Of a DNA stretch of 56,533 nucleotides, positions 3,658 to 56,533 are shown in pieces. The notes beneath the pieces were generated by a model. The model had not been told where the DNA came from. It ran no database searches and saw only the letters and a program-made list of their open reading frames with translations. Origin of the DNA: Spizellomyces punctatus DAOM BR117. Taxonomy: Eukaryota. The stretch lies in the NCBI GenBank assembly GCA_000182565.2, contig KQ257454.1, one strand, 5' to 3'. Every line of letters starts with the position of its first letter. The stretch's first letter is position 1. Made by a program: the position numbers and the translations under genes.

Positions 3658-5961
3658 TTAGAATCCACCTCCCCACCGCTCAACCAACTCTTCAGTCAAT
3701 GTCCCCGCCGGATCCCCATTCCCAATCAAGCCCAAAACATCCACATCAACATTTCTCTGAAAATGATGCGAATGCGGGATCGTCATACCAGGGAGCGTGG
3801 TGGGTTGGCTATCTTCGCCTACTTGGAGTTCAATGAGGGTTTTGAGTTGGGCGTATAACGAGTGCATGTCGAGGTAGGTCGGTGGGGAGGGGGTGGGTTC
3901 CATGCGGACGCGTTTGGTGGGGGGAAAAGTGGGGAGAGAGGTTGAAGGAGGGTAGTGGGTGTAATCTGGGGATGGGAAAAAGGGGTCTTGGGTTAGGAGG
4001 GTTGGTGCGAGGGAAGTGGAGGAGAGGAGGCCGGCGGTGAGTTGGGAGCGGGGGTGGGGGGTGGTGGTTGACTGGCCGGTCGGGTCAGTCGAGTGATTTG
4101 TGGTTGTTGTTGTGGTGGTGGTAGTTGTTGTCGTCGTAGGTGGCGTCGAGGATAGAGCGGTGAACAGGGTCGTGGATAGGGTCGTCGGGTGGCCTGGAGA
4201 CATTCCCGTTTGTATTCCCGTGTGCATCCCTGTGGGCGTCCCTGTGGGCGTCCCTGTGGGCGTCCCTGTGGGCATTCCCGTTGGTATCCCCGTTGGTATC
4301 CCGGTACGCATGCCAGCATGCATTCCAGGTGACATTCCCGTTTGCATCCCTGGTGACATTCCCGTTTGCATCCCAGGTGACATTCCATTGAGCATTGCAG
4401 GTGATATTCCGGTATGCATTCCAGGCGACATTCCATTCGCTACTCCAGGGGACATTCCAGGCGACATTCCACTGGTTACAGGTGACATTCCCGTGTGTAT
4501 ACTAGGTGGAATTCCATTGGGCACCCCGGTGGGCATTCTAATGGACATTCCAGTATGCACACTCGGTGACATGCCATTGGACATGCCAGTGGGCACTCCC
4601 GCAGGCATGGGCCCAGGAGGATGCCCCATCATGTGCAAATTCGGACTGCTCATGCTCCGCAACAACGTTGGCGCCGTACCACCCGCCAACAACCCATTTT
4701 CTCTAGGCACCGACGTCCCCGATTTTGTTTTTCCCTTGTGCACCGGCAACCCCTTGCCTCGATTCCGCTTGCGAATCACGTCCGTTTTCAAACTAATCGG
4801 GCGATCCACGCCGTGGAGTTTGAAAAAGAGGCCGCAGGCGTTGCAGAGAGGGTCGCCGTTGGCGTTGCGGCGCCACAGCGATGTCTTGTTGGTACTGCAG
4901 TTTGTGCACACTGTGAATTCGTGAAGGTTTTTGGACGAGGGCTTTTTAGAGGGTGCGCGCCGCATGTCGGCTGACGACGACGATGTGGTGCTGACGGGTG
5001 AGGATGCAAGGTGTTGTTGTTGTTGTTGTTGTTCTTCTTCTTCTTGAACGGGTAGTGGTTGTGGTGGTTGTGGTTGTGGTGGTACCGGGTGTGGTGGTGC
5101 ATGTAAAGATGGTTCTTGTTCATGTGGTAGGGTTGGAACGGGAAAGACAGATTCCAACGAAAACGAGGATGCAGGAAGGGAATTAGAAAACGAGTTTGGG
5201 AGAGAGCTCGGAAGCGAGTGCTCAAAGGAATGCTCTGGGGCAAATGCATCCATGGACATGAATTCGTGCATCCACTGTTCTTGGTCAAAGGGCGAGTCAT
5301 ACGAGTGGCCGAGAAACGCCGCGTCTTGAAAAGCGGTAGCTGAAAAGGCGGGACCTGAAAAGGCGGGGGCTGAAAATGCCACGGCGGCGGCTGTTTCCAC
5401 TTGTTCCATTGGCGAATCCATTTTGTTGTGGGCGGGTATAGACATGGGCCTGCTGCTCATTGTCGTGTCCACATCCATTCCTGTGCTCATTGTGTCTGTG
5501 CTCGTGTCTCTGCTCATGTTGACCTCTGTTCCGTGTCTGTCCCTGTCCATGTCCATAAAGTCTGCATCTCCACTCGAGCGATTCCGTAGCTGCTCCTTTT
5601 TCTTTTGCATGTGCATGAGACGCCACGTCATGTTTTCCAGACGAGCACCGTTGGGAAAAGCCTCTTTGACTTTGGTAAAGAGCCTCCATACGTCGTGGTT
5701 GTCTGTTGACGTTTTTGCCGTGGACATTAGAGATGGAAAGAGGGAATCTGGGTCGACCAGACGCTCTTGAGGAGGCGGAGTTGCTTCCTGCAAGAGTTCC
5801 TCCTTGACCTTGTATCCCTGTTCCTGTACATGTTCTACAGTGGTAAAAGTGGGAGGAGGAGGAGGAGAAGAAAAGAGTTGTTTGAATATGGATTTGCGTC
5901 TGTCTGGGAGAGGAGGGAGGAGTGTATCGACAAGAGATATAGTAGTGTTGGAGGAAGTCAT
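3658..5961 (-). CDS. areA: AreA/Nit-2/Gat1-type GATA nitrogen-regulatory transcription factor, intronless
   Basis: N-terminal DUF1752-like motif [32 protein letters not shown] finger [50 protein letters not shown]. Likely ATG at 5961, since the ORF extension upstream is a (GT)n microsatellite. Confidence 0.88.
4195..4610 (-). repeat. Coding minisatellite (12-bp and 24-bp units) encoding [12 protein letters not shown] repeats within the GATA factor
   Basis: On the + strand, CCCTGTGGGCGT occurs ~4 times and GGTGACATTCCCGTTTGCATCCC units recur; peptide [16 protein letters not shown]...GTPTGTPTG. Confidence 0.85.
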
Positions 5962-5999
5962 GACCTCTCCAGTAACAAGACAGCAAATGAGCAAAAAAC

Positions 6000-6155
6000 A
6001 ACACACACACACACACACACACTATAGTCTGTATGTGTGCGAGTGTGAAATAAAAAGAATAATAAAAAGAAGAAGGAGAAAAAGGACACGTGAGAATGCA
6101 ACATGTGAAAGAAGGGGGAATAAACGCGTGTGTGTTTATAAATAGTCACAATTGT

Positions 6156-6957: not shown

Positions 6958-8054
6958 TTACCAAGAAACAGTTTGCTGTGCAGGCGGTTCCGTCTCGTAT
7001 TCAATCTCCATATGGGGGCCTAATCAAAAAAGAAATTTTAATATTGGCATCAATAAACACAGAAACAGCAATCGGCTTGCATCCCCAAACAATACTGGGC
7101 CCTGCACCACAGTCATGGAACATACGTTTTCGATCCGGTCGCGTCGAGGACGCTTTTCGCTTCTTGCCCCGTGAACCCGCTTCTTCTCTTGTTGTTGACG
7201 ACGACGACGACGATTCAGATCCATCATCAGACTCGTACCCGGCTCCCTCAACTCCATCCTCCAAATCCCATTCATCATCACTAACATCACTCACAAACTC
7301 TCTATCCAACTCTTCTTCTTCTTCTTCTTCTTCCAATTCTTCATCAATTTGCTCCTCCTCTTCATCCACCTCAACCTCCCCTTCCTCAGCCAACCGATCC
7401 AAAGCACCCACAAAAGCCGTCTGACGCTCATTCACAATATCCCCATAAACCCCCTTACGCAACCGCTCCAACAACTCTTTTTCAATAGCAGTTTCCAATC
7501 GTGCTGCCGCTTCCGCTTTGGCTTCCTTTCGTGTTTCCCGCCGCTCAATCTTTTTATTGATTCCAATCAGTTTGGCTCGTGGTTTGAGCACCAGTTTACG
7601 CATTCGGATTAGGTATTGCGTTATTTTTGTTAGACGTTGTTTACATTTGTGGATCGTAAATGACGGCCAATGTACGAGTTCTTTATCGATTTGGGCCAAT
7701 GCTTCCGTGTAAGATTTCGACAACCGGATTTTTTCCCATTGTTTGGCCGGTGTGTGGGCGCGCTCTATTGTCTTAATGTACAGATAGAGAATCCCATTGT
7801 GTTCGCGGATCGTTGCGTACCGGCTGTTGGCCAGTGGGCACGACTGTCGGTTGCAGAGGCCCGTTACATTGTTTTCGTTGCGGCAAAAGTTTTGGGTTGG
7901 TGTCCTGGGAACGTACTTGTGTGTGAGTATACACATGCGCATCACACTCACACACTCACACACGAACAATACAGATGGCAAAGCGTACATACTTGACTTT
8001 GAAGGAACAAAACTCAAAGGCAATCGTCTTCCAAATAAGTTCGTCGCACTGCAT
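6958..8054 (-). CDS. MAK16: MAK16 60S ribosome biogenesis protein (2 introns)
   Basis: [21 protein letters not shown] / [31 protein letters not shown]...KTIERAHTP, followed by an acidic tract and the C-terminal EIEYE motif. Confidence 0.95.
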
Positions 8055-8235
8055 GATCTTCAATGGTCCCAACCAACAGCAAAATGAAAATGACACCCTC
8101 CCCCCAATTCACAGAATCCGCAAGTTGTGACACAACAACCCATATCCACCTCTCCAAAAAAAAATAAAAAGCACGTGTACAGCTTATGTAATGCCAACGT
8201 GTCATTTCTATGTTTAACATGCTCGAATTTACATT

Positions 8236-11200
8236 CTATGCATCCCTCAGCCTTACAAAATTCTCCAAAGCCTTTTCCAATGCCTGTACTTCAGCTTCAA
8301 ACCCCTTGACTTTAGTCTCATTCAACTCTTTGACACTCGCACTCACACGAGAATAGCCTTCACCCAACGTCTTTGACGTCCAAAGCTGGAGGTTTTCCTT
8401 TGCTTTGGCGAGTTTGGTTTCGAGTTTGGTGATTTCGGTATCGAAATCAATGTACCCCTACACCCCAAACAACATAAGTACATTAGAAAAGAAACATGAC
8501 AACAAACAGTACATACTGGGCAGGCACGCCATACCTTGACAAGTAAATACACCACAATATCCTCTCCAACATTCTGAATCGCACATCCAGGGGGAACGAC
8601 ACCATCCCCTCCGAGCACATTCAGCACACTGGTGCCCTTGAGCAAACTCTGAATCACAAACGCCAACCCAGAAACAACACCCTCCATCTCCTTATTCCCA
8701 ACTTTAACAAAAACCGTCGCATCCCGTACAGTGTACTCTGTCAACAACTTTCGCGCTCCACGTACAATCTCGGTAATAGTGTCGTATTGGGCTTCTGCGG
8801 TTGGGTTCTCCCATGTAGGGTTTGGAGTCGGGTACCGCGCAATCATGATGGACGGTGGGTCGTTTTGACGGCGTGGGAGGCGTTGGTAGAGTTCTTCGGT
8901 TAAAAAGGGCATAAACGGGTGCAGGAGTTTGAGACCGGATTCGAGGCAAATGTAGAGTGTGTCTTTGCGCGCTTTGGCGGGCTACAGAGTCAGTACCGTC
9001 AATAAGCGGTTTTAGTCGTTTCCTACAAAAAGGAAAAGCCATCAGATTCAAGCAAAACGCAAACAAAAGGCGTCGGACAGGGTACGGTACCAGATAAACA
9101 TCACAAAGCTCATACAACCAAAACTGGTACAATGCAGTCGTAGCCTGCATGAAATTGTACTGCTCCAGATATTCATTGGTCTTGCGGATACATTGATTGA
9201 GTTTGGCCAAGATCCACAGATCCGCAATGGATTCTTTACCCGTAACCTACAAACCACCCCAAAACAACTCTCAATAAACAAAACAAACACGACCAAAAAA
9301 CACACAAAACGAAACGCACCTCAATGCCTGACCGAGGCGTATACCCCTCTCCCAATTTCAACAATGCAAACCTCGTCGCATTCCAAAGCTTATTACACCA
9401 CTTGCGGTACCCCTCCACCCGCAAAATATCCAAATTAATATCCGATCCACCAGACGTGTACGCCAAAAGCGCAAACCGCATAGCATCCGTCCCACATTGT
9501 GGAATCCCATTCGGAAAATCGCGTTTCTGACCTTCCTGCGCTTTTTTAATTTCTCGGGCGTCCAGGTTCCCTTCTTCCAGCCGTTTATGAAGGAGGGGGA
9601 GACTGATTCCGTTAATCACGTCCATTGGATCAATCACATTTCCGAGGGATTTGGACATTTTTCGACCATGGGCGTCACGGACCATGGCATGACAAAACAC
9701 CTAATACAAAAAATTCATCATGCTTGTCATGTTACACTAGCGGCTATATAAAAACACATACCTGCTTGAAGGGAATCTGTCCAGTAAGCTTCTGACCCAA
9801 CATGACCATCCTCGCAACCCAAAAGAACAAAATATCCCGTCCAGTCTCCAACAAACTATTAGGATAAAACACATTCATATCACCCGTTTGCTCTGGCCAT
9901 CCCATAATCGAAAACGGCCACAATCCAGACGAAAACCACGTATCCAAGACATCCTCATCCTGCTCCAACGTTATCTTGTCTGCAGGTACATCCGGGAAAC
10001 GTTTTATAGCTCTCTCACGTGCTTCTGCCTCATCTCGACCAGATACCCAAAACGCGCCGTCCATACGTTCATTGTCTTGACCCTCGATGTTGACAAAATA
10101 GGCCGGCACGCGATGACCCCACCATAATTGACGGGAAATGCACCAATCTTGAATGTTTTCCATCCAGCGGAACCATTCCTTTTCAGAGGTTTGGGGAATG
10201 ATTTCGAGTTGACCTGATTTGACGGCCTGTAGTTTAAAAGTCTTTGCTTGTCATTCTTTTTCTGTGCACACGATATACTCTACATACCTTGATCGCTTCT
10301 TGTGCCATGTCCTTGCAGTTTACCCACCATTGCGGCTTGAGCAAAGGTTCAACGATATTACCGGTACGCCTACAAAAAAAAAAAATGTAAGCACAAAACA
10401 CTCTCAACCAAAGCCCTAATAACTCCACAAAACACCTACTCTGATACAGGAATCACCATTTTGTTATCCTTGGTCCCACGATACAATCCTTTCTTTTTCA
10501 ACTCTTCCAACACAGCCTCACGCGCGTCAAACCTCAACAACCCACCAAACGGCGCCCCATTCTCATTAATCCTTCCTTCGTCGGTAAAGATGTTCACAAA
10601 CTCCAATTGATTCCGCTTGCCAACAATATAATCGTTTGGATCGTGCGCAGGGGTGATTTTCACGGCTCCTGTTCCAAATTCGGGGTCAACGTATTCATCG
10701 GGGATGATGGGGATACGACGGTTTTGGAAGGGGTGGATCACGTATTTTCCGTGAAGATGTGTGTATCGGGTGTCGTTGGGATGGACCGCTACAGCTGTAT
10801 CTCCAAGCATGGTTTCCAAACGTGTAGTGGCTACCACAATTTCCTCGGACGAGTTTTCAACAGGGTACGCAAATGAGATAATGACACCGAATTCGTACTG
10901 TTTCTTGGGATCGTGGTCAGGTACACTCAACAGAGTCCTCCCGGGTAGCTCCTTGTTTTCCACTTCAAGGTTGGATAGAGCCGTCTTGAGTTTCGTGTCC
11001 CAATTTACCAACCGGTTTTCGCGGTAAATAATGCCCTCGTCATGTAATCGGACAAAGGCTTCATTGACCGCTTTCACCATACTAGGATCCATAGTAAACC
11101 TTGCTCGGTCCCAATCCATAGAACTCCCCACACTCCGCAATTGTCCATAAATCCGGGACCCATACTGATCCTTCCATTTAAACACTTCCTTTAAAAACGC

Positions 11201-12096
11201 TTCTCGACCCAACTGATGCCGACTCAGACCTCTCTCCTTCATCAATCGCTTTTCAACAACAATCTGAGTAGCAATCCCAGCATGATCACATCCAGGTACA
11301 AACAAGGTCGTCTTGCCCTTCATCCGATTCCACCGCGTCAAACAATCTTGAATCGAGTTGGTCAGTGCGTGACCCAAGTGCAGAGCTCCCGTTACGTTGG
11401 GCGGTGGAATCGGGATCGTAAAGACGCCTTCGGGACGGGGTTTCCCGTTTGGCATATCCGGCTTGAAATAGCCAGACTTTTCCCACCAGTCGTACCAGGC
11501 AGCTTCGACAGCTTTAGGATTATAAGCGGTTGGACATGGACCACTCAGATCTGCCAAAAAAAAAAAAATACGTCAATCAAGGAATACATTACCATGCACA
11601 TACGACATGCCATACCTTTCTTTTCACCAGATGGCGTAGTATTCACAAACTCTGGCTCTGGCTCCACTTCTTTTACCTTGCTCTTTTTCTCCTTTTTCTT
11701 TACACCACCATCCGCCTAAACCAACCCAAACCATTTGCATAAAAGTTATACACACTAGTAATAATCCAGGAACATACATGCAAAACAGACACACACACAC
11801 ACCTGAGCAGCAGCAGCCTGAGCAGCCAATTTGGCCTCATACTTTGCCAACTTTGCCAACCGCTTCGCCTCATTCTTTTCAGCATTCTTTGATTTAGGCA
11901 CCTCATCCCCAATCGAACTCGCAACAGGACCATTTGTCGCTATAGAATCCGCCATCTGTTTACAATCCCGTATCGAAAATGAAAATAGTCGTGCTCGTTT
12001 ATGCGTCAGATGCGATGGTAATGGTTTATAAAAGGTACGCCGAGTGACTGCTGCAAATGAACTGGATGATATCCAATGGAGATGCACCAGTCGCAT
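8236..12096 (-). CDS. VAS1: Valyl-tRNA synthetase (probable dual mitochondrial/cytosolic), multi-exon; two apparent +1 frameshifts near 8965-9015
   Basis: [15 protein letters not shown] (HIGH motif), [46 protein letters not shown] and a C-terminal coiled coil. Confidence 0.95.
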
Positions 12097-26081: not shown

Positions 26082-27961
26082 ATGGCCAGAGACAAACGCA
26101 AGAAACGAAAAGACCACGCTGCAAAGAAGGCAGCCGCAAAGTCCTACAAGTCTCAAAAGCAGGCTGAAAAGGCGGAGCGAAAGAATGCTCGACATAATGC
26201 AAAGTTTGAAGAAGACGACGAGGATATAGACCTTATTTTGAAGCAGTTTGAGGCCGAGGAAAAGAAGAAGTATGAGGTATATAAAGAGTGCTCATAATGC
26301 TGTAAAATATTTGAGCTGAAGAGATGAGTAACAGCCATAAAAGGTAACAGAAGAAATATCCGCAGATCCCCCGTCACCGCGCGCAAATGCTTCGTTCGTT
26401 GCGAGCCCTCTAAGCCAGCCAGTGCTATATCTCTTTGGCGGCGAGCACTATGACGGAAACAAGCTACGAGTCTTTAATGAATTATACAAGTAAGCAGTCC
26501 AGTCAGTCAACCCACCTTTTGAAGTGCTCACCGTTGTTTCGAAAAAGGTACCGCATCGACAAACAAGAATGGCGAAAGATTGTATCGGCGTATGCTCCTG
26601 GCCCAAGGAGTGGTCATCAAACTGTTGCACTGAATAATGGAAAGCTTCTTGTCTTTGCCGGAGAGTTTGGTTAGTACCCGCACTGGATTCTACTCTTCAC
26701 CGGTATTCAAACATTGGCCACCAGCCTCTTCTACCCAGAGTCAATTCCATCACTGGAAGGTGAGCACCGTACACCTGTACGAAATATTTGAAACAGCGCA
26801 CTGATAGCTAGCAGGATTGCTGGACTTTTGATGTGAAAGAAAATAAGTGGGAAAAGCTTGACATCCCAACACCGCCTCCAAGATCAGGACATCGGATGAC
26901 AGTGTGGAAGAACTTTGTTATCATGTTTGGAGGTGTGTGGTGTATCTTTCATTTATCTCTGTGACGTTACTTACAGTCCGATGTCCATTGATAGGATTCT
27001 ACGATAACTACAAAACAACCAAATATTATGACGATCTGTGGATATTTGACTGCAATGAGTACAAATGGGAGAAGGTAGAGCTCCCTGCATTATCCTCCAA
27101 ACCTACGTAAGTAGGAGTGATTTTCCACAACTGAGTGACGGGTGGCAGGCTGACATGAGCCGTGTAGTGCCCGATCTGGTTTCCAATTTTTTACGTATGG
27201 AGACATTTGCTTTCTATATGGAGGCTATTGCAAGACACAAGTGGACGGAGAGCGCGAACAGGGCGTGGTTCATTCAGGTGCATACCAAGACGTGCCAAAT
27301 GTTTCCGAACTTTAAGTTGACACATTGTCTAGATATGTGGATCCTGCACATGTCCACCGATATGAGTGCGCTACGCTGGGAGCGCGTTAAGAAATCCGGT
27401 ACGCCACCGCCGGCCCGAGCAGGTTGTACCATGACGGTACACAAGAACAGGGCTATTTTGTTTGGAGGGGTAGAAGATGACGAGGAGGCAGGAGATGTAA
27501 GCGTATCCCGTAATGACATGTTTAGCTTTGCGCTTGAAGGGAAAAAGTGGTTTCCCTTCACTTTGAAGAAACCAAAGGAAGCGGAAGGTGGGAAGAGGAG
27601 ACGAAGAGCAAAGGCGCCAACTGGTGAAGAGGAGGTCGAGCAGGGGGAGGGGGAGGATGACACATTGGCCGACGGCCAAGCGTCAGAAGAAAATATCCCG
27701 CATCCAAGGTATAACGCGATGTTAACTGTTTACCGCAGTACCCTGTACCTCTACGGTGGGCTTTTTGAGGAGCGCAAAAAAGAGTTTACCTTGGATGACA
27801 TGTGGACTCTGAACTTGGACAAAGGAGGTCCATGGGAAACTGTGATCAAGGGCGGCTGGGAAAGGGGAAAGGAGACCCAAGGTGCGAAGGATGGCGAGGC
27901 AGACGAGAATAGTAGTGCGGAGGATAGTGATGGCGATAGTGGCGATAGCGATAGTGATTAG
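26082..27961 (+). CDS. KLHDC4: Kelch-repeat protein KLHDC4/Kel3, multi-exon
   Basis: Basic N-terminus, DIDLILKQFEAEE, PSPRANAS, LFGGEH, PGPRSGHQ, SQFHHWKD, PPRSGHRM, LYLYGG...EFTLDDMW. Confidence 0.85.
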
Positions 27962-29301: not shown

Positions 29302-29448
29302 TATGGGCGTCCGTAAGCTTGGAGGAGGGCCGCAGTGGAACGGTACCGAGTTGATGACACTTGCTGTGCATGGTATCCATAGTTACAACCTGGTGCTGAC
29401 CAAGACCCATTAACTGCGACAACCGCCAAGATCTGCAGATGATGCGAG

Positions 29449-31872
29449 ATGTATTTATACCATCTGTGCTTCGAAGTCTTCTTGCCCGTCCTTCACACGC
29501 CGTCTACTCCCAAGTTTGCCTTCCCACACTCTCAAGAGCCGTACGCAGCAGGGTCCTTACCGCCCGCCTTTCCTACGGATATCTTCGATCGATTATTGCC
29601 CAGTTATCGGATAGGAACTGTCAATAAATTCAATAAATCGAGTAAGATAAAATTAAAAAAGGAGAGTCAGCTTCCTAAAGGTGGTGGAAAGGCGTTTTGC
29701 GAAAATCATTCTGAACTAGGGCCGGACGCATCCTCCGGGAGTGGTGCAAAAAGCCCAAGCGAAGGACCTTGCCACCGTCGTCGGACACGACAGTTCCCAT
29801 CTGCTGGGCATAGTGTCGCAGATTGGAGAATTGGAACTTTGACCATTGAGTGGTACGATATGTTTGATGGCGCCACCAACAAAGGTGCAGGTGCCTCCGC
29901 AGGCGAACCTCGAACACCAAAAGCGTCGCAGCCAACGCGTGAGGGAGGGGGCAGCTCCACGTTGATCACCGAGACAGCTGCGGTGACCAGAGCAGATACG
30001 GAAAGTGCTGCTACCCGTAATAATGAGCTACCTGGATGTTCTCGAACAGAATTCCTGGAAGAGGACCATGCGCTCCCATCACGTCGGCAACGAACACGGT
30101 CCGCGAAAAAGAAACAAAAAGCTCACACGATTCCGACAAGCGGTGCATTCATTCCCTTCCGTACGGGAACCACTGAACTCAACGCTGGAATCTTGCATCT
30201 TTACCGAGAACGCGCAGATGTTGAGGATATTCTTCATCAGTCTGCTATCCCCCTGCAAAGTGACCCGTCGACTGAACGTCTAACACCAGAGGAAATGTCT
30301 TCTGTCAAGGGAACTGGCACAATATTGTGTGTCTTGGCTGTACCGTCCTACATGACCGCGCAAGATTTTCTCAACTTTGTAGGGCCACTTCGTGATGAGA
30401 TGAGCCATCTGAGGATCGTGAGAGACTCGCTACCTAACCGATATATGGTGCTCATCAAGTTTCGGGACGCACAAGGCGCTGAACGGTTTTACAAGGACTA
30501 CAACGGCCGGGAATTCAGTTCCCTCGAGCCTGAGATGTGTCACGTTGTCTACATCAAATCGATCGAATTCAAATCCCGGGCCATTCCGCCCTACGCATTC
30601 CCTCCGCTTCCAGATGATCCCAGTACATTGTTTTTGCCGACTAAGGTGCCCCTTAGTCCGGCTAACGCAGAAGTCAGCGCCTCTCCAAATTCCGGATCTC
30701 CTTCAAGCACCTACAATATCCCAAGCGATGTGGCAGAGGCAGGAGAGCCTAGAACATCACCCTATGCCACAAGTCCTGCCAAGTCCCCCACTCTGATGAC
30801 AACAAATCAACTTCTGGAGCTTCCAACATGTCCGGTCTGCTTGGAGCGGATGGACGCATCGGTGACCGGCCTGTTGACCATTCTATGTCATCACACCTTT
30901 CACTGCCATTGTTTGTCAAAATGGGGGGATTCCTCATGCCCTGTTTGTCGATATTCTTCAAAAGTCTCATCGTCGCTTGACTCTGACGACGACATGCGAA
31001 ACGAGTGCATGGACTGTGGCTCCACGGAGAATCTCTGGATCTGTTTGATATGCGGAAACATTGGATGTGGGAGATACCAGGAGGCGCACGCGCAGAATCA
31101 TTTTGCGGATACTCAGCATACCTACTCAATGGAGCTCGAGACACAACGAGTATGGGATTACGCCGGAGATGGATATGTGCATCGCTTGATACAAAACCGT
31201 ACGGATGGTAAACTGGTAGAATTGCCCGCTCCCAATCGCACGCACTCGTCTGAATTTGGCGAGAACTTGAACGGAAGCGGAGGTGGGCGGGCAGAAGTGG
31301 GTGGGATGGTTACCACCGAAAAGATGGAGTCCATCGGGTTAGAGTATACGTATCTCTTGACGTCACAACTTGAGTCGCAGCGATTATGGTACGAGTCGCG
31401 CTTAACGCAGATAGAGACCGCTCTGACGCAGCAAAGCTCTGAGCTGACGGGGGCATTAAGTCAAATGCAAGCTGAGCGAGATAGTGCTGTAAAATCACGT
31501 GATGATCTTCAGGCACAGCTTACGCGTGCAGAGAGAGACAACCGTGCCCTTCATAGTCGGTTGACCAAGATTCTGGACCGCGTTGTTAGCAGCGAAAAGG
31601 ATCTCAAAGAAGAGAGAGCCTTAACGAAATCCCTGCTGGCAAATCAAACGTTGTATCAAACCAAGATTGCATCCGCGGAGCAGACTGTGCGTGAGAAGGA
31701 CGCTGATATAGCAGATTTGAAAGAGCAAGTCCGGGACTTAATGGTCTTTTTGGACATGAGAAAGCAGGTAGAGGATTCCGGAGTTGGCGAGGTAAAAGGC
31801 GCTCAAGTGGTCGGTGTAGCTCCCGCCCCTCCCACCCCAGGACCAAAACGGAAGGGCAAGGGAAAGAAATGA
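29449..31872 (+). CDS. BRAP: BRAP2/IMP/Etp1 RING-H2 plus ZnF-UBP ubiquitin ligase, intronless
   Basis: BRAP2 domain (LCVLAVPSYMT...PNRYMVLIKFR), RING (ELPTCPVCLERMD...CHHTFHCHCL), ZnF-UBP (LWICLICGNIGCGRY...RVWDYAGDGYVHRL) and a coiled-coil tail. Confidence 0.95.
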   Translation: MYLYHLCFEVFLPVLHTPSTPKFAFPHSQEPYAAGSLPPAFPTDIFDRLLPSYRIGTVNKFNKSSKIKLKKESQLPKGGGKAFCENHSELGPDASSGSGAKSPSEGPCHRRRTRQFPSAGHSVADWRIGTLTIEWYDMFDGATNKGAGASAGEPRTPKASQPTREGGGSSTLITETAAVTRADTESAATRNNELPGCSRTEFLEEDHALPSRRQRTRSAKKKQKAHTIPTSGAFIPFRTGTTELNAGILHLYRERADVEDILHQSAIPLQSDPSTERLTPEEMSSVKGTGTILCVLAVPSYMTAQDFLNFVGPLRDEMSHLRIVRDSLPNRYMVLIKFRDAQGAERFYKDYNGREFSSLEPEMCHVVYIKSIEFKSRAIPPYAFPPLPDDPSTLFLPTKVPLSPANAEVSASPNSGSPSSTYNIPSDVAEAGEPRTSPYATSPAKSPTLMTTNQLLELPTCPVCLERMDASVTGLLTILCHHTFHCHCLSKWGDSSCPVCRYSSKVSSSLDSDDDMRNECMDCGSTENLWICLICGNIGCGRYQEAHAQNHFADTQHTYSMELETQRVWDYAGDGYVHRLIQNRTDGKLVELPAPNRTHSSEFGENLNGSGGGRAEVGGMVTTEKMESIGLEYTYLLTSQLESQRLWYESRLTQIETALTQQSSELTGALSQMQAERDSAVKSRDDLQAQLTRAERDNRALHSRLTKILDRVVSSEKDLKEERALTKSLLANQTLYQTKIASAEQTVREKDADIADLKEQVRDLMVFLDMRKQVEDSGVGEVKGAQVVGVAPAPPTPGPKRKGKGKK

Positions 31873-48794: not shown

Positions 48795-49706
48795 TTATCG
48801 TCTGCTTCCACGTGGTTGCTCTCCCCTACTTCCTGGTGTAAATACCCGAGCTCTATGATGAAGTTGATCTGCTTTTCGTGAACGCTGTGCCTGGCGGCCA
48901 CCAAAAGTCCGAGGCCATGATGAATATTGCACTGTCTCCACAGTTCTTTCAGCCAAAAGACCTGCTCGAATCTTGGCATCAATCCTGCGTCTCTTTTGGC
49001 TCTTCCGTCGACGGCCGGGTTTATGGTTGGTCGAGGTCTCAGGTTGACATGGAATAGTGATCACCCTTGTACTCCAAGCATCCTATCATGATATACAGAT
49101 TATTCATGTGCTTCCCTCCCACACTACACTCTTAGTTTTTCTTACCCGTGACACATGTGACTCCTTTCGTATTTGTTCTGGGCTGATGATAACGTCTCGG
49201 AAGCATCGTCTGCGCTCAGCCTCAAGGTCACTAGTTGCGCGAATGTGGAAGTCTTTCATTACCAACGAAAATCAAATACCAGTTTCCTTTCAGCCCATAC
49301 CTGTCTATTTCATACTCATGGGGTAGTCTTTCTGGAAGAATCTCTTGGGGATTTAAATTAATACGTGAGAGGGGAGTGGAAAAAAGTCGGAACCCTGTGA
49401 AGTAGTAACTGCATTGTCATTATCCCCTGATATAAATAGCAATGTCTGGTCGTGCTGATATAAACCCATACCTTCCCCAGGTCCTTCCTCTTCATTAACG
49501 TATATCTTAGTCCCTTCCTCCAGCCTGCTCACTCCCATTGGCTCCACCTCGAACAGTTCTGTAAGGTAACTCTCAAGTCGTTGTGCTGCCGCATCGTCAA
49601 GGGTATCCTCTCCTGGCAAAACTGGATACAGGATTGAGCGTACAGAGCTCGCGGTATTTGGTCCTACTGAACTACATGAAACCTCGCTGCATTTTACTGG
49701 GGACAT
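48795..49706 (-). CDS. Hypothetical multi-exon protein, weakly reminiscent of the fungal DUF2011 family
   Basis: ORF pieces separated by GT-AG introns: ...ERRRCFRDVIISPEQIRKES / AWSTRVITIP...KPGRRRKSQKRRR. The family resemblance is weak. Confidence 0.4.
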
Positions 49707-49815
49707 CGTGCAAGAGTTGAATGTGCCCTCTTCTGCTTGTGCGGGAATGCTGACCCAACCCGACTTGTTGACACGGCAACCGATCGCTGCTTACGTAACG
49801 AGTAATTTGTCAACG

Positions 49816-49908
49816 GGAAATACAATTTGATGCCATAGTGCGGAGCCGATGGGTATTGGCACTAGCACCCGCACCAGGGATTGAACCGGCGACAACCAGT
49901 TCGGAAAA
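49816..49908 (-). ncRNA. Fanzor omegaRNA: scaffold ~49836-49908 plus a ~20-nt guide from flanking DNA (49816-49835)
   Basis: Minus-strand TTTTCCGAACTGGTTGTCGCCGGTTCAATCCCTGGTGCGGGTGCTAGTGCCAATACCCATCGGCTCCGCACTA lies just after the Fanzor stop. Possible pairings are GAACUGG/CCGGUUC and GUGCGG/CCGCAC, with GGGUG/UACCC as an overlapping alternative. It resembles the published SpuFz1 omegaRNA as recalled. Confidence 0.82.
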
Positions 49909-49923
49909 GGTAATCTAACTAAT

Positions 49924-50127
49924 CTACGCTACGGCTGGAACACCCCTGCTGAACACTTTTGGTCTACCGTGTCCATCTAACATTGATTGCACGATCATCA
50001 GCATGTTGCAGGTGCTCAGCGTGTCCCTGTTCCAGTAGCGCATCGTCCAGGCTTGCTGACAGTTAGGGTTGGTACAACCCAGCAATCCATGGACTTTTTC
50101 AATCTTGCCTTCGCGACGGCGCCAAGG
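49924..50127 (-). pseudogene. C-terminal fragment of a Fanzor1 (TnpB-derived) RNA-guided endonuclease
   Basis: PWRRREGKIEKVHGLLGCTNPNCQQAWTMRYWNRDTLSTCNMLMIVQSMLDGHGRPKVFSRGVPAVA*. It has the second zinc-finger Cys pair, the RuvC-III WNRD motif and an RP..F.R tail, and closely matches the S. punctatus Fanzor1 C-terminus as I recall it. Confidence 0.9.
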
Positions 50128-50166
50128 AAACACTTTGAAACACTTTGAAACACTTTGAAACACTCC
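50127..50166. repeat. 10-bp tandem repeat GAAACACTTT x3 plus partial copies at the deletion junction of the Fanzor element
   Basis: ggaaacactttgaaacactttgaaacactttgaaacactcc; a further variant caaacacttc at ~50178. Confidence 0.9.
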
Positions 50167-50235
50167 AATGCATTGGGCAAACACTTCAATACGGCTTATT
50201 ATATAGAATATTATAAGCCGGGTATATCATATTAT

Positions 50236-50835
50236 TGTAACGACGAGGACGTCTTCGAGAGATCGCGAGTAAGCCCAAATCGGACGCGGGAAGCACGAAT
50301 CGCGTGACCAACTCCACCGATTGGGTTACCGCGACCGAAAAAACCGGTTCGGAGAATGGCAATTGGCGCATTAGATTTCAGCGTGCCTCGTACAACCTGT
50401 GGAGGCCCGAGCCAGTGCGGAAAAGGAAGAGATCGGTACCGCCACCAATAAATCAGTTGCGGTGCAGCGACACCCATTAGTTTAGTTTAGTTTAACAGTT
50501 TATCCAAGAATCTTGTATAAAAAGGATGTATTCAATAAAATAAGTCGGGGGCAGAAGCCGTAGCGACAAAAAATCCCCATAACTCGCTTCTCAACTCCAA
50601 TCTTAGGTTAACAGGAACCTAACAGAGCGCTTCAACGGCCTGATCACCCGTACCGAAGCCTCTAAATCCTGCTCGGTTCACAACTAACCGACTCTCCTTG
50701 CCTCTCGCCCTCAAGTCGCTACCGACGCCCAAAGAAAGGATTTGGAGACTACGATTCCTAGTACGGACACCCACACAACCTGCTAGGAGACCCAAGTTGT
50801 CTTTACTGTAGTCTACCAACAAAAAATCCGTTACA
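50236..50835 (+). repeat. 5' LTR (600 bp)
   Basis: Begins TGTAACG and ends CGTTACA (7-bp terminal inverted repeat), contains AATAAA signals and is followed directly by a PBS. Confidence 0.85.
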
Positions 50836-50850
50836 TGGTGGAGAAGCGCG
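50836..50850 (+). promoter_or_regulatory. Primer-binding site, probably for tRNA-Ala
   Basis: TGGTGGAGAAGCGCG is complementary to a tRNA 3' end ...CUUCUCCACCA with U70 and A73, the alanine identity elements. Confidence 0.7.
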
Positions 50851-50990
50851 ACGAACCGCCTTCCCCTCTCAAATTCAGCTGAAAACCTTATTCGGTCGTA
50901 CCGAAACTCTTGCGCAAACCGAGATCCGCTCAGGTAGCTACTCGGAAACCTTTTCTCTCGTTTCGGAGACAGAACTTCACGAAACCGAGA

Positions 50991-53168
50991 ATGATGCCGG
51001 TCGAACGCTCACCAACGCGAGGCCGCTCACCTGTGATCCAGACTCGTAGTCAGGGTCCTGCGGAGGACGTCGAAGTCCCTCCCGCAACACGCCCAAGGCG
51101 TTCAGGGACCACTTCCGTCGAACCGGAAGCCCCTAACTTGGCCACGATGGCCTCTGAAGTGGCAGCGTTAAAAGAAGACATTGCCCGCTCGACTGCTGCA
51201 ACGCAGTTGGCAACTCAAAACCTTACGGAACAGCTTCATAGGCTTTCCGAACGTCAGACAGCGGCGGATGAGCGCCTCGCACGAGCCTTAGAAGCCCTAG
51301 CGCATCGCCCGCTGCCTGAACAACCTCCCATAGCACGAGCTACAAGAGAACGGTCCGCAACCCCGTGGGAAACGGCGGACACACCAAGGGAGCGTACCGA
51401 ACCAAGTTTTTCAGGTGCGGTGCCTCCAATCCAAGTGCCAGCGGCCCCGTGGGCCAGCGACACCAAGGTCGATTCCTTGAAAGCAAAGGACGTACCCGAG
51501 TTTACGGGCAGAAGAAACCAAGACGTTGAAGAATGGCTTAACAAAGTCCAACTTCTTCAAAACGTTAGCGCAACGTCGGATGCCAGGATGGTACAGCTCC
51601 TACCAGCCATGATAGCCGAGAAAACCCCTGCTGACGCTTGGTTTTACACTCTGGAAGCCCAGGAAACTCGCTCATGGACCTGGAAAAGGTGGAAAGAGGA
51701 ACTGCTTCGAGAGTTCCGAGATCCCCTAACCGAGTCCAAGCGCAAAACCGAATATGTGCGCTGCCATGCGAACCCCAAAGAATTTCGCAGCTTTCTCGCG
51801 TTCATCGACCACAAAACTCATCTCCGGCGCCTCGCTTATGGCGACCGGGCAAACATAGAATGTCCCGCTGACCAGCATTTCGACCTAATAGTCGAACAAT
51901 TGCCCAGCGACATCCAAATCATGGTCAAATCCTGTAACGTCACGAACCTGACCAAATTAAAAGACTTCCTGCGCCTTTATTTCGGCTCTGATGACACCAG
52001 AAAACGAGACCCTTGCTACAGCGGTGCTGCAGAAGCTCAGAAGAAGTCACAAAAGACCGGAACCGACAAAGGCCCTAAGCAGACGGCTCCGCATAAAACC
52101 GGAAACCCCGAAAAGGGTCGCGATGGTCCTCAGAAGATGGTTCCGGACCCCAACAAGGAACCACCGGCACCCTGCAAATTCTGTCAGAAAAAGCATTGGA
52201 ATGTTTTCTGCTGGCAGAACCCGAACCGAAAAGATCCTGAAGATGGAAAGAAAGGACCATATGGAGCACCCATGCCCTCAGGTTGGAAACCCAAACAGGA
52301 ATCGAAGAAGGCGTACATAGTGGAGCTGGACTCGACGTCCGCTACCACCGAGACTCTTTTTTCGGCTTCGGAACTGGAAAGAACGGAAGCCGCTAATCAA
52401 GGATTCCACACCATCGGGTTCTTTCATTCACCCAAGCACTCGGAATCAACAATTTTGATGACCGCACCTCTTTCCAAGGTCACGGTGACCAAGGAAGAGG
52501 ACCCCCGCACGCCCACGCAGGGCTGGGACCGAGTCTGGGACAACATAGCCATCATCTGGGGCACCCCGCAAGTGGCTCTGATGATGGGCAACAACCCCCG
52601 CGCGCTCAGCTTCTTCGCCAAAGAACCGAAGCGAGGCGCCGGGCACCTCGGGAACGACCCCTACGCAGTCGCGTGGAGTTCCCACCACCTCTACATCGCT
52701 GCCGCAGCCGAAGCTGACAAGGATCGAATCCTGCGAAAGGTCCGAGAAGACGGTACCCCTCGTTTGATTCTCCTTGCCTGGATAAAGCTCGACGAGCGCG
52801 AGAAATTCTTGATGTGGAGCTCTGAAGATCCTGTTATCTTTGATGCGTACGCCAACCTGCAACTGGTGGCATTTCTCCTGACAGGCAATATCGTTCGCTC
52901 AGACTATTATTATCGTCGCGGAAACCCCAAATTTCGGCACGTTAAAGACCATCCACGTCTCCAAAGACACGAAGAGAGCGAACGGACGCGTATAGTCATG
53001 CTGGCTATCGAACAAGTTGCTCGCCAGAATAAAACAACAAAACCACAAAACGACAAAACTAGAGAACACTTTGAGAGTGTGATCAAGGCTACGGAAGCAA
53101 CAATTTACCGCCCGCCCCCCCTTTTGGGGGGGGGGGGGGGGTTTTTTAAAACCTCTCTTCTCTGGTGA
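50991..53168 (+). CDS. Gag (capsid plus CCHC-type knuckle) with a long C-terminal extension; 3' end unreliable next to the gap
   Basis: DVPEFTGRRNQDVEEWL, TWKRWKEELLREF and the knuckle CKFCQKKHWNVFC. Confidence 0.8.
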   Translation: MMPVERSPTRGRSPVIQTRSQGPAEDVEVPPATRPRRSGTTSVEPEAPNLATMASEVAALKEDIARSTAATQLATQNLTEQLHRLSERQTAADERLARALEALAHRPLPEQPPIARATRERSATPWETADTPRERTEPSFSGAVPPIQVPAAPWASDTKVDSLKAKDVPEFTGRRNQDVEEWLNKVQLLQNVSATSDARMVQLLPAMIAEKTPADAWFYTLEAQETRSWTWKRWKEELLREFRDPLTESKRKTEYVRCHANPKEFRSFLAFIDHKTHLRRLAYGDRANIECPADQHFDLIVEQLPSDIQIMVKSCNVTNLTKLKDFLRLYFGSDDTRKRDPCYSGAAEAQKKSQKTGTDKGPKQTAPHKTGNPEKGRDGPQKMVPDPNKEPPAPCKFCQKKHWNVFCWQNPNRKDPEDGKKGPYGAPMPSGWKPKQESKKAYIVELDSTSATTETLFSASELERTEAANQGFHTIGFFHSPKHSESTILMTAPLSKVTVTKEEDPRTPTQGWDRVWDNIAIIWGTPQVALMMGNNPRALSFFAKEPKRGAGHLGNDPYAVAWSSHHLYIAAAAEADKDRILRKVREDGTPRLILLAWIKLDEREKFLMWSSEDPVIFDAYANLQLVAFLLTGNIVRSDYYYRRGNPKFRHVKDHPRLQRHEESERTRIVMLAIEQVARQNKTTKPQNDKTREHFESVIKATEATIYRPPPLLGGGGGFFKTSLLW

Positions 53169-53237
53169 GTGGGGGGGGGCGATAAAAAAAAAAAGCCAGA
53201 CTAAGACCCACCCCGCGGGCGGGCTGGACGCTAGCCG

Positions 53238-53726
53238 NNNNNNNNNNNNNNNNNNNNNNNNNNNNNNNNNNNNNNNNNNNNNNNNNNNNNNNNNNNNNNN
53301 NNNNNNNNNNNNNNNNNNNNNNNNNNNNNNNNNNNNNNNNNNNNNNNNNNNNNNNNNNNNNNNNNNNNNNNNNNNNNNNNNNNNNNNNNNNNNNNNNNNN
53401 NNNNNNNNNNNNNNNNNNNNNNNNNNNNNNNNNNNNNNNNNNNNNNNNNNNNNNNNNNNNNNNNNNNNNNNNNNNNNNNNNNNNNNNNNNNNNNNNNNNN
53501 NNNNNNNNNNNNNNNNNNNNNNNNNNNNNNNNNNNNNNNNNNNNNNNNNNNNNNNNNNNNNNNNNNNNNNNNNNNNNNNNNNNNNNNNNNNNNNNNNNNN
53601 NNNNNNNNNNNNNNNNNNNNNNNNNNNNNNNNNNNNNNNNNNNNNNNNNNNNNNNNNNNNNNNNNNNNNNNNNNNNNNNNNNNNNNNNNNNNNNNNNNNN
53701 NNNNNNNNNNNNNNNNNNNNNNNNNN
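53238..53726. other. Assembly gap (probably hides the protease)
   Basis: Run of N. Confidence 1.
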
Positions 53727-53789
53727 ACCATGTTAATCACGGGACAGACGCGCGTGGCAGCCAAACTTTCTCATCGAAAACCCTCTTGA

Positions 53790-56533
53790 GGCCACGCTGC
53801 TAGCTCAACGGTCCCGTTAGGCCTCAAACTGTCCACCGCGACCCATAATTCGGTTGCGGACCCCGAAGAGAACATTTCCAAAGAAGAATGGCAGACACTT
53901 CGGAACAAATGGAACCTCGACTCTACGGAGAGGGCTCCAGGGGCCTTCGAAGCCCAATTAAAAGACGCGGAACGTTTCCACGTCGATCTCAAGCGACCCA
54001 AACCCGTGGTCTGGGCCCTAATCAACATTCTACGACACTTCCATCAAGCCTTCAGCTATGAGGGTCATCTCATAGGGAACTACACCAAGATTCCTTATGC
54101 GCCTCGATTTATCTCGGCTCCGCCACCCCTTTCGAGGCCACGGTCGTACTCTCCGTTGGAGCGGACAGCCCTCGAGACGGAGCGAGACACCATGATGGGG
54201 CTTCAGAGGTGGAAACGAACCACCGAAGTAACCTTCGCCAGCGATCCTGTTATCATTCGCTATGCAGACAAACCCCCGCGCGTAGCCTTCGACTATCGCC
54301 GAGCCAACGACTGCATGGCCTGGGATCCATATCCCTTTCCCATCATGCTCGACATCCTGAACTGGATCGTCGCAGTCCCATTCCGATACATATCGGGAGG
54401 TGACGCAAACAAAGGATTCTACCAAATCGCCATCACCGATGCGTCGGTACGCAAATGGCTCGCGCTCAGACTCCATGACGGCATCTACGAACCACTCTTT
54501 ATGCCCTTCGGACCCAAGACTGCCCCCTCGCACTTCTGTCGGGTGATGGACGACACCTTGGGTCCCTCCAAATGGCGAAATATCAACAACTTCGTCGACG
54601 ATATCCACACACGAGCGGAGACAGCCGCGGAAGCCCTAGACGCCATCGCGGACTGGCTCGACCGCTTTTCCAGAGCCAAACTCACCCTAAGACTCGACAA
54701 GTGTCAATGGCTCTTTCACCAGCTCACGGCCCTCGGTTTCGTTGCCTCCTCTCAGGGTCTCGCTACCGATCCAGACAAGGTCGCAACCATAGTCGATTGG
54801 CCACAACCCAAATTCATAGGTGACCTATGGTCATTCGTGGGTCTCCTAGGGTTCTACGCCCAATTCATTTCTCGCTACGCGGAACTCGTCCGACCCCTGC
54901 AAGACGCTATCCAAGAGGGCGTTCGCGAATACCGAGACCTTAAAAAGGGTCGCGCTGACCCGAAGAAAGGCGCTGAAAAGCTCAATTCACCATCCATGCT
55001 CGACACGGCGGTGGCCCCTACAATCACAGCCACCGGAGCCCGATTTGAGGTTTCGCAACATCCGAAATCTAGCTCCTCAGACCTACCGGCGGTCAATCTA
55101 CGCCAATCATCGCTGGCGGACTTACCCATTGACCCCTTTTGTGTCGGACGCCTTGCTCGCAAGCGCCCCGACCAAGGTCTGCGCAGATTTATCGCGAAGC
55201 GTGAAGTTTCATGGACCGATTCCCGAAACTCTGCCTTCGCAGCCGCCAAGCAGGCTCTGACAACAGCTCCAGTGCTCGCGGCACCCAGAAAAGGGTTCCC
55301 CTACACCCTTCACAGTGACGCTTCCTACACAGCGTTTAATGTCACGCTCGAACAGTTACAGCCGGATGCTTCTAAACGCCCGCTGTGCTACCATTCCCGA
55401 GGCACCACCACCTCGGAAAAGAAGGCCCCCCCCGTCGAACTCGAGGCCGGATGCCTCATTTGGGGCCTCGGAAAACTCCGCCCATACCTCGAAGGCCTGC
55501 CTTTCACGGTCATTACTGATCACCGAGCTCTTTTGTGGCTCGCTAAATACAAAGGCGAGAACCGTAAGCTTCTCCGCTGGGCCCTCGATCTTAGTTACTG
55601 GTCCGAATGGATGACAATCGTTCACAAACCAGGACGTTTTCACATTGTCGCTGATACACTTTCACGGCTACTAGGAGCGGAAACCCTACTCTGCTCCACC
55701 GCGACCCAAATATGGGTGTCGAAACGCGGAAGACGACGGCTGCGCACCACACCAGCTGCTCTCGCACCTTCCTCGACACTGGCAGATGCCGTCTTTCGTC
55801 TGGCCTTACAGCCTGCACTCATTGCCGCCATCCGCGCTGGCCTCACCGGCCAGCTCCACCCCATAGCCCAACAGGCCCGCACGCTCCTATGGGAGACCAG
55901 CCCCGACACGTACACTACCGCCGACACGCGCTTTCTTCAGGACTGGCAACGTGCAGATAACCTGCTGTGGCACCGTTTTTCAGTCTCCGAAGACCTTTGG
56001 CGCCTTTACGTGCCCCCTGCTTGCACCCCTGAGGTGCGCAAGCTTTTTCACGAGGGGGGAGGACACTTCGGATTCGAAAGAACCTACGCTAGAGCTGCAG
56101 CGCAAGTCTGGTGGCCGAAAATGGCACAAGATTTCAGAAAACACTGCGCAGGATGTGAAACCTGTCAACGCTCAAAAAGGGTACCGCAACTGATTCCGGG
56201 GTTGCTGAAACCCATACCACCAGCTCCGGGATGCTGGACAGTCATCACGACTGACTTCGTAACCAAGCTCCCACTTACTTCCAGAGGGTACGATGCCTTT
56301 TGGTTAATAGCATGTAAATGCTCAAAGAGGATCCACGTATGGCCCCTCAAGAGCACTGCGACAGCTATTCAGGTCGCGGAACTCTTTATAGAGCGCTACG
56401 TCCCATTGCACGGCATCCCGGAGACCATTATCTCGGACCGCGACTCCAAATTTACGAGTCGATTTTGGCAGGAGGTCTGCAAAAACCTAAAGATTAATCA
56501 AGAGCTCACCACAGCCTACCACCCTCAAGGTGG
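53790..56533 (+). CDS. Pol: reverse transcriptase, RNase H and integrase (open to the window end, so absent from the ORF track)
   Basis: RT: RVAFDYRRAN, DANKGFYQI, MPFGPKTAPSHF, FVDD at 54591. RNase H: LHSDAS, ELEA, TDHRAL, ADTLSR. Integrase: HHCC motif (HEGGGH...CETCQRSK) and core (TTDFVTKLP, IISDRDSKFTS, TTAYHPQ). Confidence 0.95.

Follow-up and report, generated by a model that had tools for sequence, protein, structure and literature searches.

The locus near position 49,836 of a 56,533-nucleotide stretch of contig KQ257454.1 from Spizellomyces punctatus DAOM BR117 (the stretch as a whole is referred to as the window) raises the question of what kind of Fanzor element it holds, where this element ends, and whether an empty target site and a TAM can be read from its flanks. 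An earlier note, made from the letters alone, had taken it for a short (~385 bp) non-autonomous Fanzor element (49838-50222) with the left end CCCGG, an empty site ...GATATA + TGGCATC and TATA in the place of the TAM, either as a decayed CATA or as a relaxed TAM. Our analysis leads to a different answer, to which we assign a probability of about 0.9: the segment 49821-50127 (minus strand) is what remains of a 5'-truncated SPu-1 (SpuFz1, Fanzor1) copy, solitary and with an apparently intact omegaRNA scaffold, its empty site cannot be read from the locus, and the TATA is unrelated to the TAM.

Saito et al. 2023 (PMC10432273) already list the locus in their Supplementary Data, where the 3350-bp record is named "NW_015971541.67 - Loci with Fz". 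We matched the record to the window from 48778 onwards by eye and with 4 of 5 peptide terms, so that a record coordinate equals the window coordinate minus 48777. The record also marks a "ty3 hit" in addition to the features listed in Table 1.

Table 1. Features of the remnant, its flanks and the remainder of the window, with read depth across the locus (DNA depth per strand class in run X22)
Feature	Position	Strand	Basis or remark
AreA-type GATA factor	3658-6021		
Mak16/L28e-domain protein	7001-8059		
Leucyl-tRNA synthetase fragment	10436-11572		
Kelch protein	27059-27961		
BRAP2	29443-31872		
SPPG_03196 CDS, uncharacterized protein, 4 exons	48795-49706	-	GenBank features in published record; exon 1 translation; ATG at 49706
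OmegaRNA guide, native length 15 nt, TGGCATCAAATTGTA	49821-49835	-	Follows scaffold end directly; locus-specific
SpuFz1-type omegaRNA scaffold, 75 nt	49836-49910	-	Comparison with published scaffolds; fold
SPu-1 right inverted repeat, ending ...GCACTA	49836-49865	-	Last 30 nt of scaffold; published "end" feature maps there
Fanzor ORF remnant, residues 569-638 of 638	49924-50127	-	phmmer; published "fz" feature; stop codon TAG at 49924-49926
Published "fz" feature, residues 569_638, 11%	49927-50127	-	
Tandem repeat (GTGTTTCAAA)x3.8	50127-50164		Repeat analysis
Non-SPu-1 spacer, 108 nt	50128-50235		Mismatch with canonical sequence upstream of break; low read depth
Palindrome, 13-bp arms	50192-50220		In spacer
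Tetramer TATA of the earlier note	50223-50226		In AT-rich spacer
Ty3/Gypsy 5' LTR, TGTAACG...CGTTACA	50236-50835	+	X3 contig start; sequence
Primer-binding-site-like TGG...	50836	+	Adjoins LTR
gag ORF, uninterrupted	50910-53168	+	Ty3/Gypsy
Published "cur_end" (curated second end)	52067-52096	+	Inside gag ORF
Assembly gap (Ns)	53239-53726		Inside Ty3 element
pol with RT, RNase H and integrase domains	53790-56531+	+	Runs to window end
DNA depth 30-60	49600-49833		Unique flank
DNA depth 319	49834-49859		
DNA depth 480-1230	49860-50119		
DNA depth 81-91	50120-50145		
DNA depth 3-15	50146-50223		
DNA depth 24-123	50224-50350		LTR

The right-hand side of the element is well defined. Read on the minus strand, the junction runs ...GGTGCGGGTGCTAGTGCCAATACCCATCGGCTCCGCACTA and then TGGCATCAAATTGTATTTCC..., and the bases directly before the guide (CGGCTCCGCACTA, 49836-49848) are the 3' end of the published 75-nt SpuFz1 omegaRNA scaffold. 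The scaffold of a second locus, ID14, likewise ends in ...CGGCTCCGCACTA, and in both cases a locus-specific guide follows (PMC10432273). The scaffold in the window is identical to that of ID14 at 71 of 74 positions and to that of ID16 at 70 of 75, as counted by eye without an alignment tool. The region folds into two stems (-32 kcal/mol, z -2.59, with 3 of 200 shuffles as stable), the second of which carries an 8-nt loop, a feature also given for the second stem of the canonical scaffold (Saito et al. 2023, PMC10432273). The scaffold/guide boundary at 49836 is also visible in the multi-copy data, where DNA depth goes up about tenfold at 49834-49859 and the alignment of a 3102-nt contig of run X3, which stems from a different copy, begins at 49836, with divergence below; a second X3 contig (1778 nt) covers 49600-49862 without any difference. 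The right-hand TA of SPu-1 is present at 49836-49837. Judged from its sequence, the omegaRNA scaffold is apparently intact.

In placing a SpuFz1-type scaffold here and in locating its junction with the guide, the earlier note was correct, as both the published scaffold ends and the multi-copy boundary agree with it. Its guide range (49816-49837) does contain the 20 flank bases, but it also takes in the last two bases (TA) of the scaffold and inverted repeat, and the native guide is shorter than the 20 nt assumed: because native SpuFz1 guides are 14-15 nt long (Saito et al. 2023, PMC10432273), the actual guide covers 49821/49822-49835 on the minus strand, starting at 49835. The 20-mer TGGCATCAAATTGTATTTCC (49816-49835, minus strand) is the sole match to itself within the window at up to 3 mismatches. 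A tRNA-like reading of the scaffold, in which GGTTCAATCC would resemble a T-arm, was rejected with 0 genes from ARAGORN and 0 matches from Rfam, both at the gathering score and at E up to 10 on 49780-50000. A metagenome scan with a 25-nt pattern of the inverted repeat gave 0 matches.

Upstream of the scaffold, the minus frame 49927-50130 matches Spizellomyces punctatus Fanzor 1 (PDB 8GKH) in a phmmer search with an E of 4.7e-37. Of the 67 aligned residues 62 are identical, with two in-frame deletions, and the match covers residues 963-1032 of the fusion. The fragment includes the second Cys pair of the zinc finger and, as the only member of the D-E-D triad present, the third Asp of RuvC (WNRD); a Pfam search with the 68-aa fragment returned nothing significant. 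The full Fz ORF of ~638 aa is absent from the locus, which keeps residues 569-638 only. When a longer protein query was used, the alignment to 8GKH started at query residue 33/34, corresponding to base 50127, and nothing upstream aligned. At the DNA level (compared by eye), the window agrees with the published +275-nt scaffold extension and with the full-length ID16 record as far as CCTTGGCGCC (50127), and then departs from both. SPu-1 homology in the window is confined to 49836-50127, that is, to these Fz residues plus the scaffold (~290 bases).

The same break is seen in the reads and contigs of four runs, which were aligned to 49600-50350 at 85% likeness. As X3 is possibly the sample behind the assembly and X22 probably comes from the same strain, these reads confirm the structure but do not amount to evidence independent of the assembly. 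Loose ends at 50127, found in 25 reads of X22 (agreement 0.99) and in one contig of run X10, continue with TCTTGAAT, which is the canonical SPu-1 sequence. Beyond the break, depth in the spacer falls to 3-15 per strand class versus 30-60 in the unique flank. Because this is at or below single copy, the spacer is not a repeat family; the sub-single-copy depth itself could reflect library bias or local heterogeneity. A BLAST search for a second copy of 49701-50300 within the window found none, returning only the segment itself, the local palindrome and two short chance matches. The point at which the Fanzor remnant is truncated is also the exact start of a 10-nt tandem repeat (GAAACACTTT on the plus strand, 3.8 copies). 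At the far side of the spacer, 50236 is the first base of a 6239-nt X3 contig and the site of loose ends in two contigs.

What the truncation has removed is the end from which a TAM would be read. Bao & Jurka (2013, PMC3627910) described 33-bp TIRs and putative TA TSDs for SPu-1, and Saito et al. (PMC10432273) reported 30-nt inverted repeats, a conserved CA upstream of the 5' inverted repeat in Fz and ghost loci, and CATA as the TAM, in agreement with what the earlier note had given for SpuFz1. In intact SPu-1 copies (the full-length ID16 record and one other locus) the left end reads CA and then TAGTGCGG, the 30-nt left inverted repeat opening with TAGTGCGGAGCC... right after the flank CA; the canonical right end, likewise seen in the ID16 record and one other locus, reads ...GCACTA followed by the guide. 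The TAM CATA thus consists of the conserved CA of the flank and the TA with which the left inverted repeat begins (a putative TA target-site duplication). Within the window, the 27-nt SPu-1 inverted repeat has a single match, the right inverted repeat itself, and no left one; its 12-nt core has 4 matches at up to 2 mismatches versus 2.67 expected. The best left-repeat candidate in 50128-56533 agrees at 18 of 30 positions (at 52067) and was equalled by 33 of 200 shuffles. Since the left inverted repeat and the CA+TA junction are gone, the pre-insertion site is unreadable from this locus. The earlier empty site GATATA-TGGCATC with its TATA TAM rests on a misplaced left boundary, with the SPu-1 left inverted repeat absent, and a C-to-T decay of CATA or a relaxed TAM is unsupported, since the left-end junction is missing.

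While the guide is taken from the right flank, the TAM sits where the left end meets its flank, and therefore only the element-free site carries both TAM and target (PMC10432273). The sole match to the resident guide in the window is preceded by ACTA rather than CATA. As the mutation of any TAM base abolishes SpuFz1 cleavage (PMC10432273), the resident site should be immune and self-targeting is not expected. A tolerance of SpuFz1 for TATA is not addressed in the available part of the Cell 2024 structure paper.

Could the locus nevertheless be two-ended? The ~385-bp element proposed at first has on its side that the claimed letters are present in the window (...ATGATATA/CCCGG at 50218-50230, with CCCGG at 50218-50222), and that an imperfect 17-nt inverted repeat (12/17) pairs the proposed flanks, 49821-49837 with 50223-50239. 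As an element-end signal, however, this pair is unremarkable, being 1 of 19 such pairs in 800 nt, and was taken as chance. The claimed boundary, 50222/50223, falls inside the spacer, 95 nt beyond the point (50127) at which family homology stops; the bases 50146-50223, at or below single-copy depth, belong to no repeat family, and CCCGG... is unlike the left inverted repeat of either SPu-1 or the ghost elements. Alleles joining ...GATATA directly to TGGCATCAAATTG would be the empty site envisaged earlier (14-15-nt guide TGGCATCAAATTGT/A), and none of the reads or contigs in the four runs joins both claimed flanks. The loss of cleavage upon any TAM mutation (PMC10432273) also speaks against TATA in this role. 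The comparison across multiple copies, which the earlier note had named beforehand as the observation that could overturn its reading, yields element boundaries that differ from those claimed. CCCGG marks no end of an element, and TATA, as an arbitrary tetramer, has nothing to do with the TAM; a two-ended element of this size is extremely improbable. Somewhat less so, and still very doubtful, is that a complete SPu-1 was split by the insertion of Ty3/Gypsy, and maybe further rearranged, with its 5' part and true TAM lying beyond the retrotransposon or at the "cur_end". Of the 42 full or partial loci of Saito et al. 2023 (PMC10432273), 11 contain Ty3 or other genes, and at some of these Ty3 lies in or beside the Fz gene; moreover, by marking a "cur_end", the authors of the record treated the locus as two-ended, and the window, which has a gap, does not reach the end of pol. 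On the other hand, a clean insertion would put SPu-1 against the LTR, yet 108 nt of unrelated DNA intervene. The "cur_end", tried as a left inverted repeat, is the chance-level candidate at 52067 (18/30; 33/200 shuffles); its place within the uninterrupted gag ORF puts it inside Ty3, and it is probably a chance match. The published catalogue places only one other Fz locus on the same genomic scaffold, 920 kb away, and as it has no nearer fz match, a displaced 5' half nearby is unlikely; with the window ending inside Ty3 pol and containing an assembly gap, such a half is excluded only via this catalogue. Within the Ty3 element, the sequence at 53110-53200, before the gap, is homopolymer-rich and probably of low quality, and the many "ORFs" across the gap are artefacts of the Ns.

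A different set of alternatives concerns the function of the remnant rather than its origin, as it lies next to a host gene. The annotated 5' end of the SPPG_03196 mRNA (XM_016751470.1) is at window position 50125, and its annotated 5' UTR holds the whole remnant, the scaffold and the guide. A Pfam search with exons 1 and 4 of this gene gave only DUF5595, with an E of 0.025 that is below its cut-off. With 110-129 bp from the guide DNA down to the ATG at 49706, the earlier distance of ~110-130 bp is borne out; of the accompanying remark that binding could affect the promoter, the position upstream of the ATG stands, inside the annotated 5' UTR, but self-targeting of a site preceded by ACTA is not expected. 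A TATATAA-like motif is found ~75 nt upstream of 50125 on the minus strand (window 50125-50207). Host co-option of the remnant, in the sense that it gives SPPG_03196 its start region or 5' UTR and that the scaffold is a putative Fz binding site modulating the gene, is compatible with the truncation account and appears unlikely to us. It would fit the start of XM_016751470.1 only 2 nt from the SPu-1 break, as well as minus-sense RNA reads that extend at a depth of about 1 from the CDS through 49707-49833. However, the annotated start at 50125 may be real or may be an artefact of multi-mapping reads from other Fz loci, the RNA coverage is too thin for locating a start, and Fz binding to a scaffold embedded in an mRNA is purely hypothetical. 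In the guide bin itself (49808-49833) the RNA depth of run X21 is 0.27/0.77, which amounts to too few reads to speak for or against expression of the omegaRNA, from a library not made for small RNAs. Less likely again, to the point of being rather remote, is that the locus is a guide-only parasite or co-opted element, whose omegaRNA in the 5' UTR of SPPG_03196 is loaded by Fz of the 19 full-length loci and then either cuts the element-free allele (CA-TA-TGGCATC...) or tethers Fz to the SPPG_03196 transcript as a regulator. As a parasite it would cut the ancestral allele in crosses, and repair would drag the remnant together with the adjacent Ty3 into that allele.

ISDra2 is moved by the TnpA that it encodes. 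The arrangement of guide and TAM in SPu-1 is like that of such IS200/IS605 TnpB-omegaRNA systems, in which the guide is the right-end flank and the TAM is at the left-end junction; unlike them, SPu-1 has TIRs and putative TA TSDs (PMC3627910), and no transposase flanked by SPu-1 inverted repeats was found in S. punctatus (PMC10432273). The 5'-truncated form is reminiscent of CRe-1/2/3 of Chlamydomonas reinhardtii (Bao & Jurka 2013, PMC3627910); Fanzor elements often occur as 3' fragments without a 5' end. Those of C. reinhardtii, in contrast to SPu-1 with its TIRs and putative TA TSDs, are associated with Helitrons, originate by one-ended transposition and often have variable TSDs. The closest relatives are the other SPu-1/SpuFz1 loci of DAOM BR117, with which the remnant shares the Fz C-terminus (62/67 identical), the same right inverted repeat and 75-nt scaffold, and a variable guide after ...GCACTA; it differs from them in representing the last ~13% of a 2.25-kb element, without left inverted repeat, CA+TA junction or functional ORF.

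The locus also resembles the ghost Spu-1 elements (134 loci; Saito et al. 2023, PMC10432273), which have an omegaRNA without an Fz gene. In both cases an omegaRNA gene is found without a working Fz gene and could depend on Fz in trans, and the 5' half of the remnant's scaffold (CTTTTCCGAAC...) resembles ghost scaffolds. The ghosts, however, have two inverted repeats, a conserved body of ~550 nt and a ghost-type inverted repeat that differs at 7 positions. With one inverted repeat of the canonical type, Fz codons, and a spacer at or below single-copy depth, the locus was rejected as a ghost and classified as a truncation product. An RNA signal touching on these subfamilies was observed in run X21, where the depth reaches ~15,800 at 49860-49937 (minus sense) from reads that fit only ~49872-49917. 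The letters in these reads are of the ghost type, with T>A at 49881 in 10957 of 11510 and G>A at 49883 in 8534 of 11587, and agree with ghost omegaRNA scaffolds, as published, over the 5' half. In their most frequent 3' continuation the reads depart from the canonical scaffolds as well as from the published ghost ones, which may point to a highly expressed third subfamily of scaffolds.

According to the reading we favor, that of a 5'-truncated SPu-1 copy, the remnant has kept the last 70 Fz codons, the right inverted repeat, the omegaRNA scaffold and the adjacent host DNA serving as guide. The missing part amounts to ~1.95 kb and comprises 89% of the ORF together with the promoter region and the left inverted repeat, and the break (50127/50128) now adjoins 108 nt of unrelated DNA followed by the Ty3/Gypsy LTR. 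The truncation may have occurred by deletion, by abortive repair or by a rearrangement with the Ty3 insertion, among which the sequence cannot tell. A one-ended remnant would presumably no longer be excised, so that no empty donor site would arise from it. Its omegaRNA, if transcribed, could be loaded in trans by Fz from intact full-length loci, as was shown for ghost omegaRNAs (PMC10432273).

Overall, as the family, its omegaRNA, its TAM and the locus are all published already, the finding by itself matters little. For curators, it means that the second "end" which the published data set assigns to the locus is probably a chance resemblance within the Ty3 gag gene. For the family, it means that the TAM of SPu-1-type Fanzor elements is readable only from copies that keep the left inverted repeat, and that truncated copies are to be left out of TAM logos, where they would otherwise feign TAM variants.
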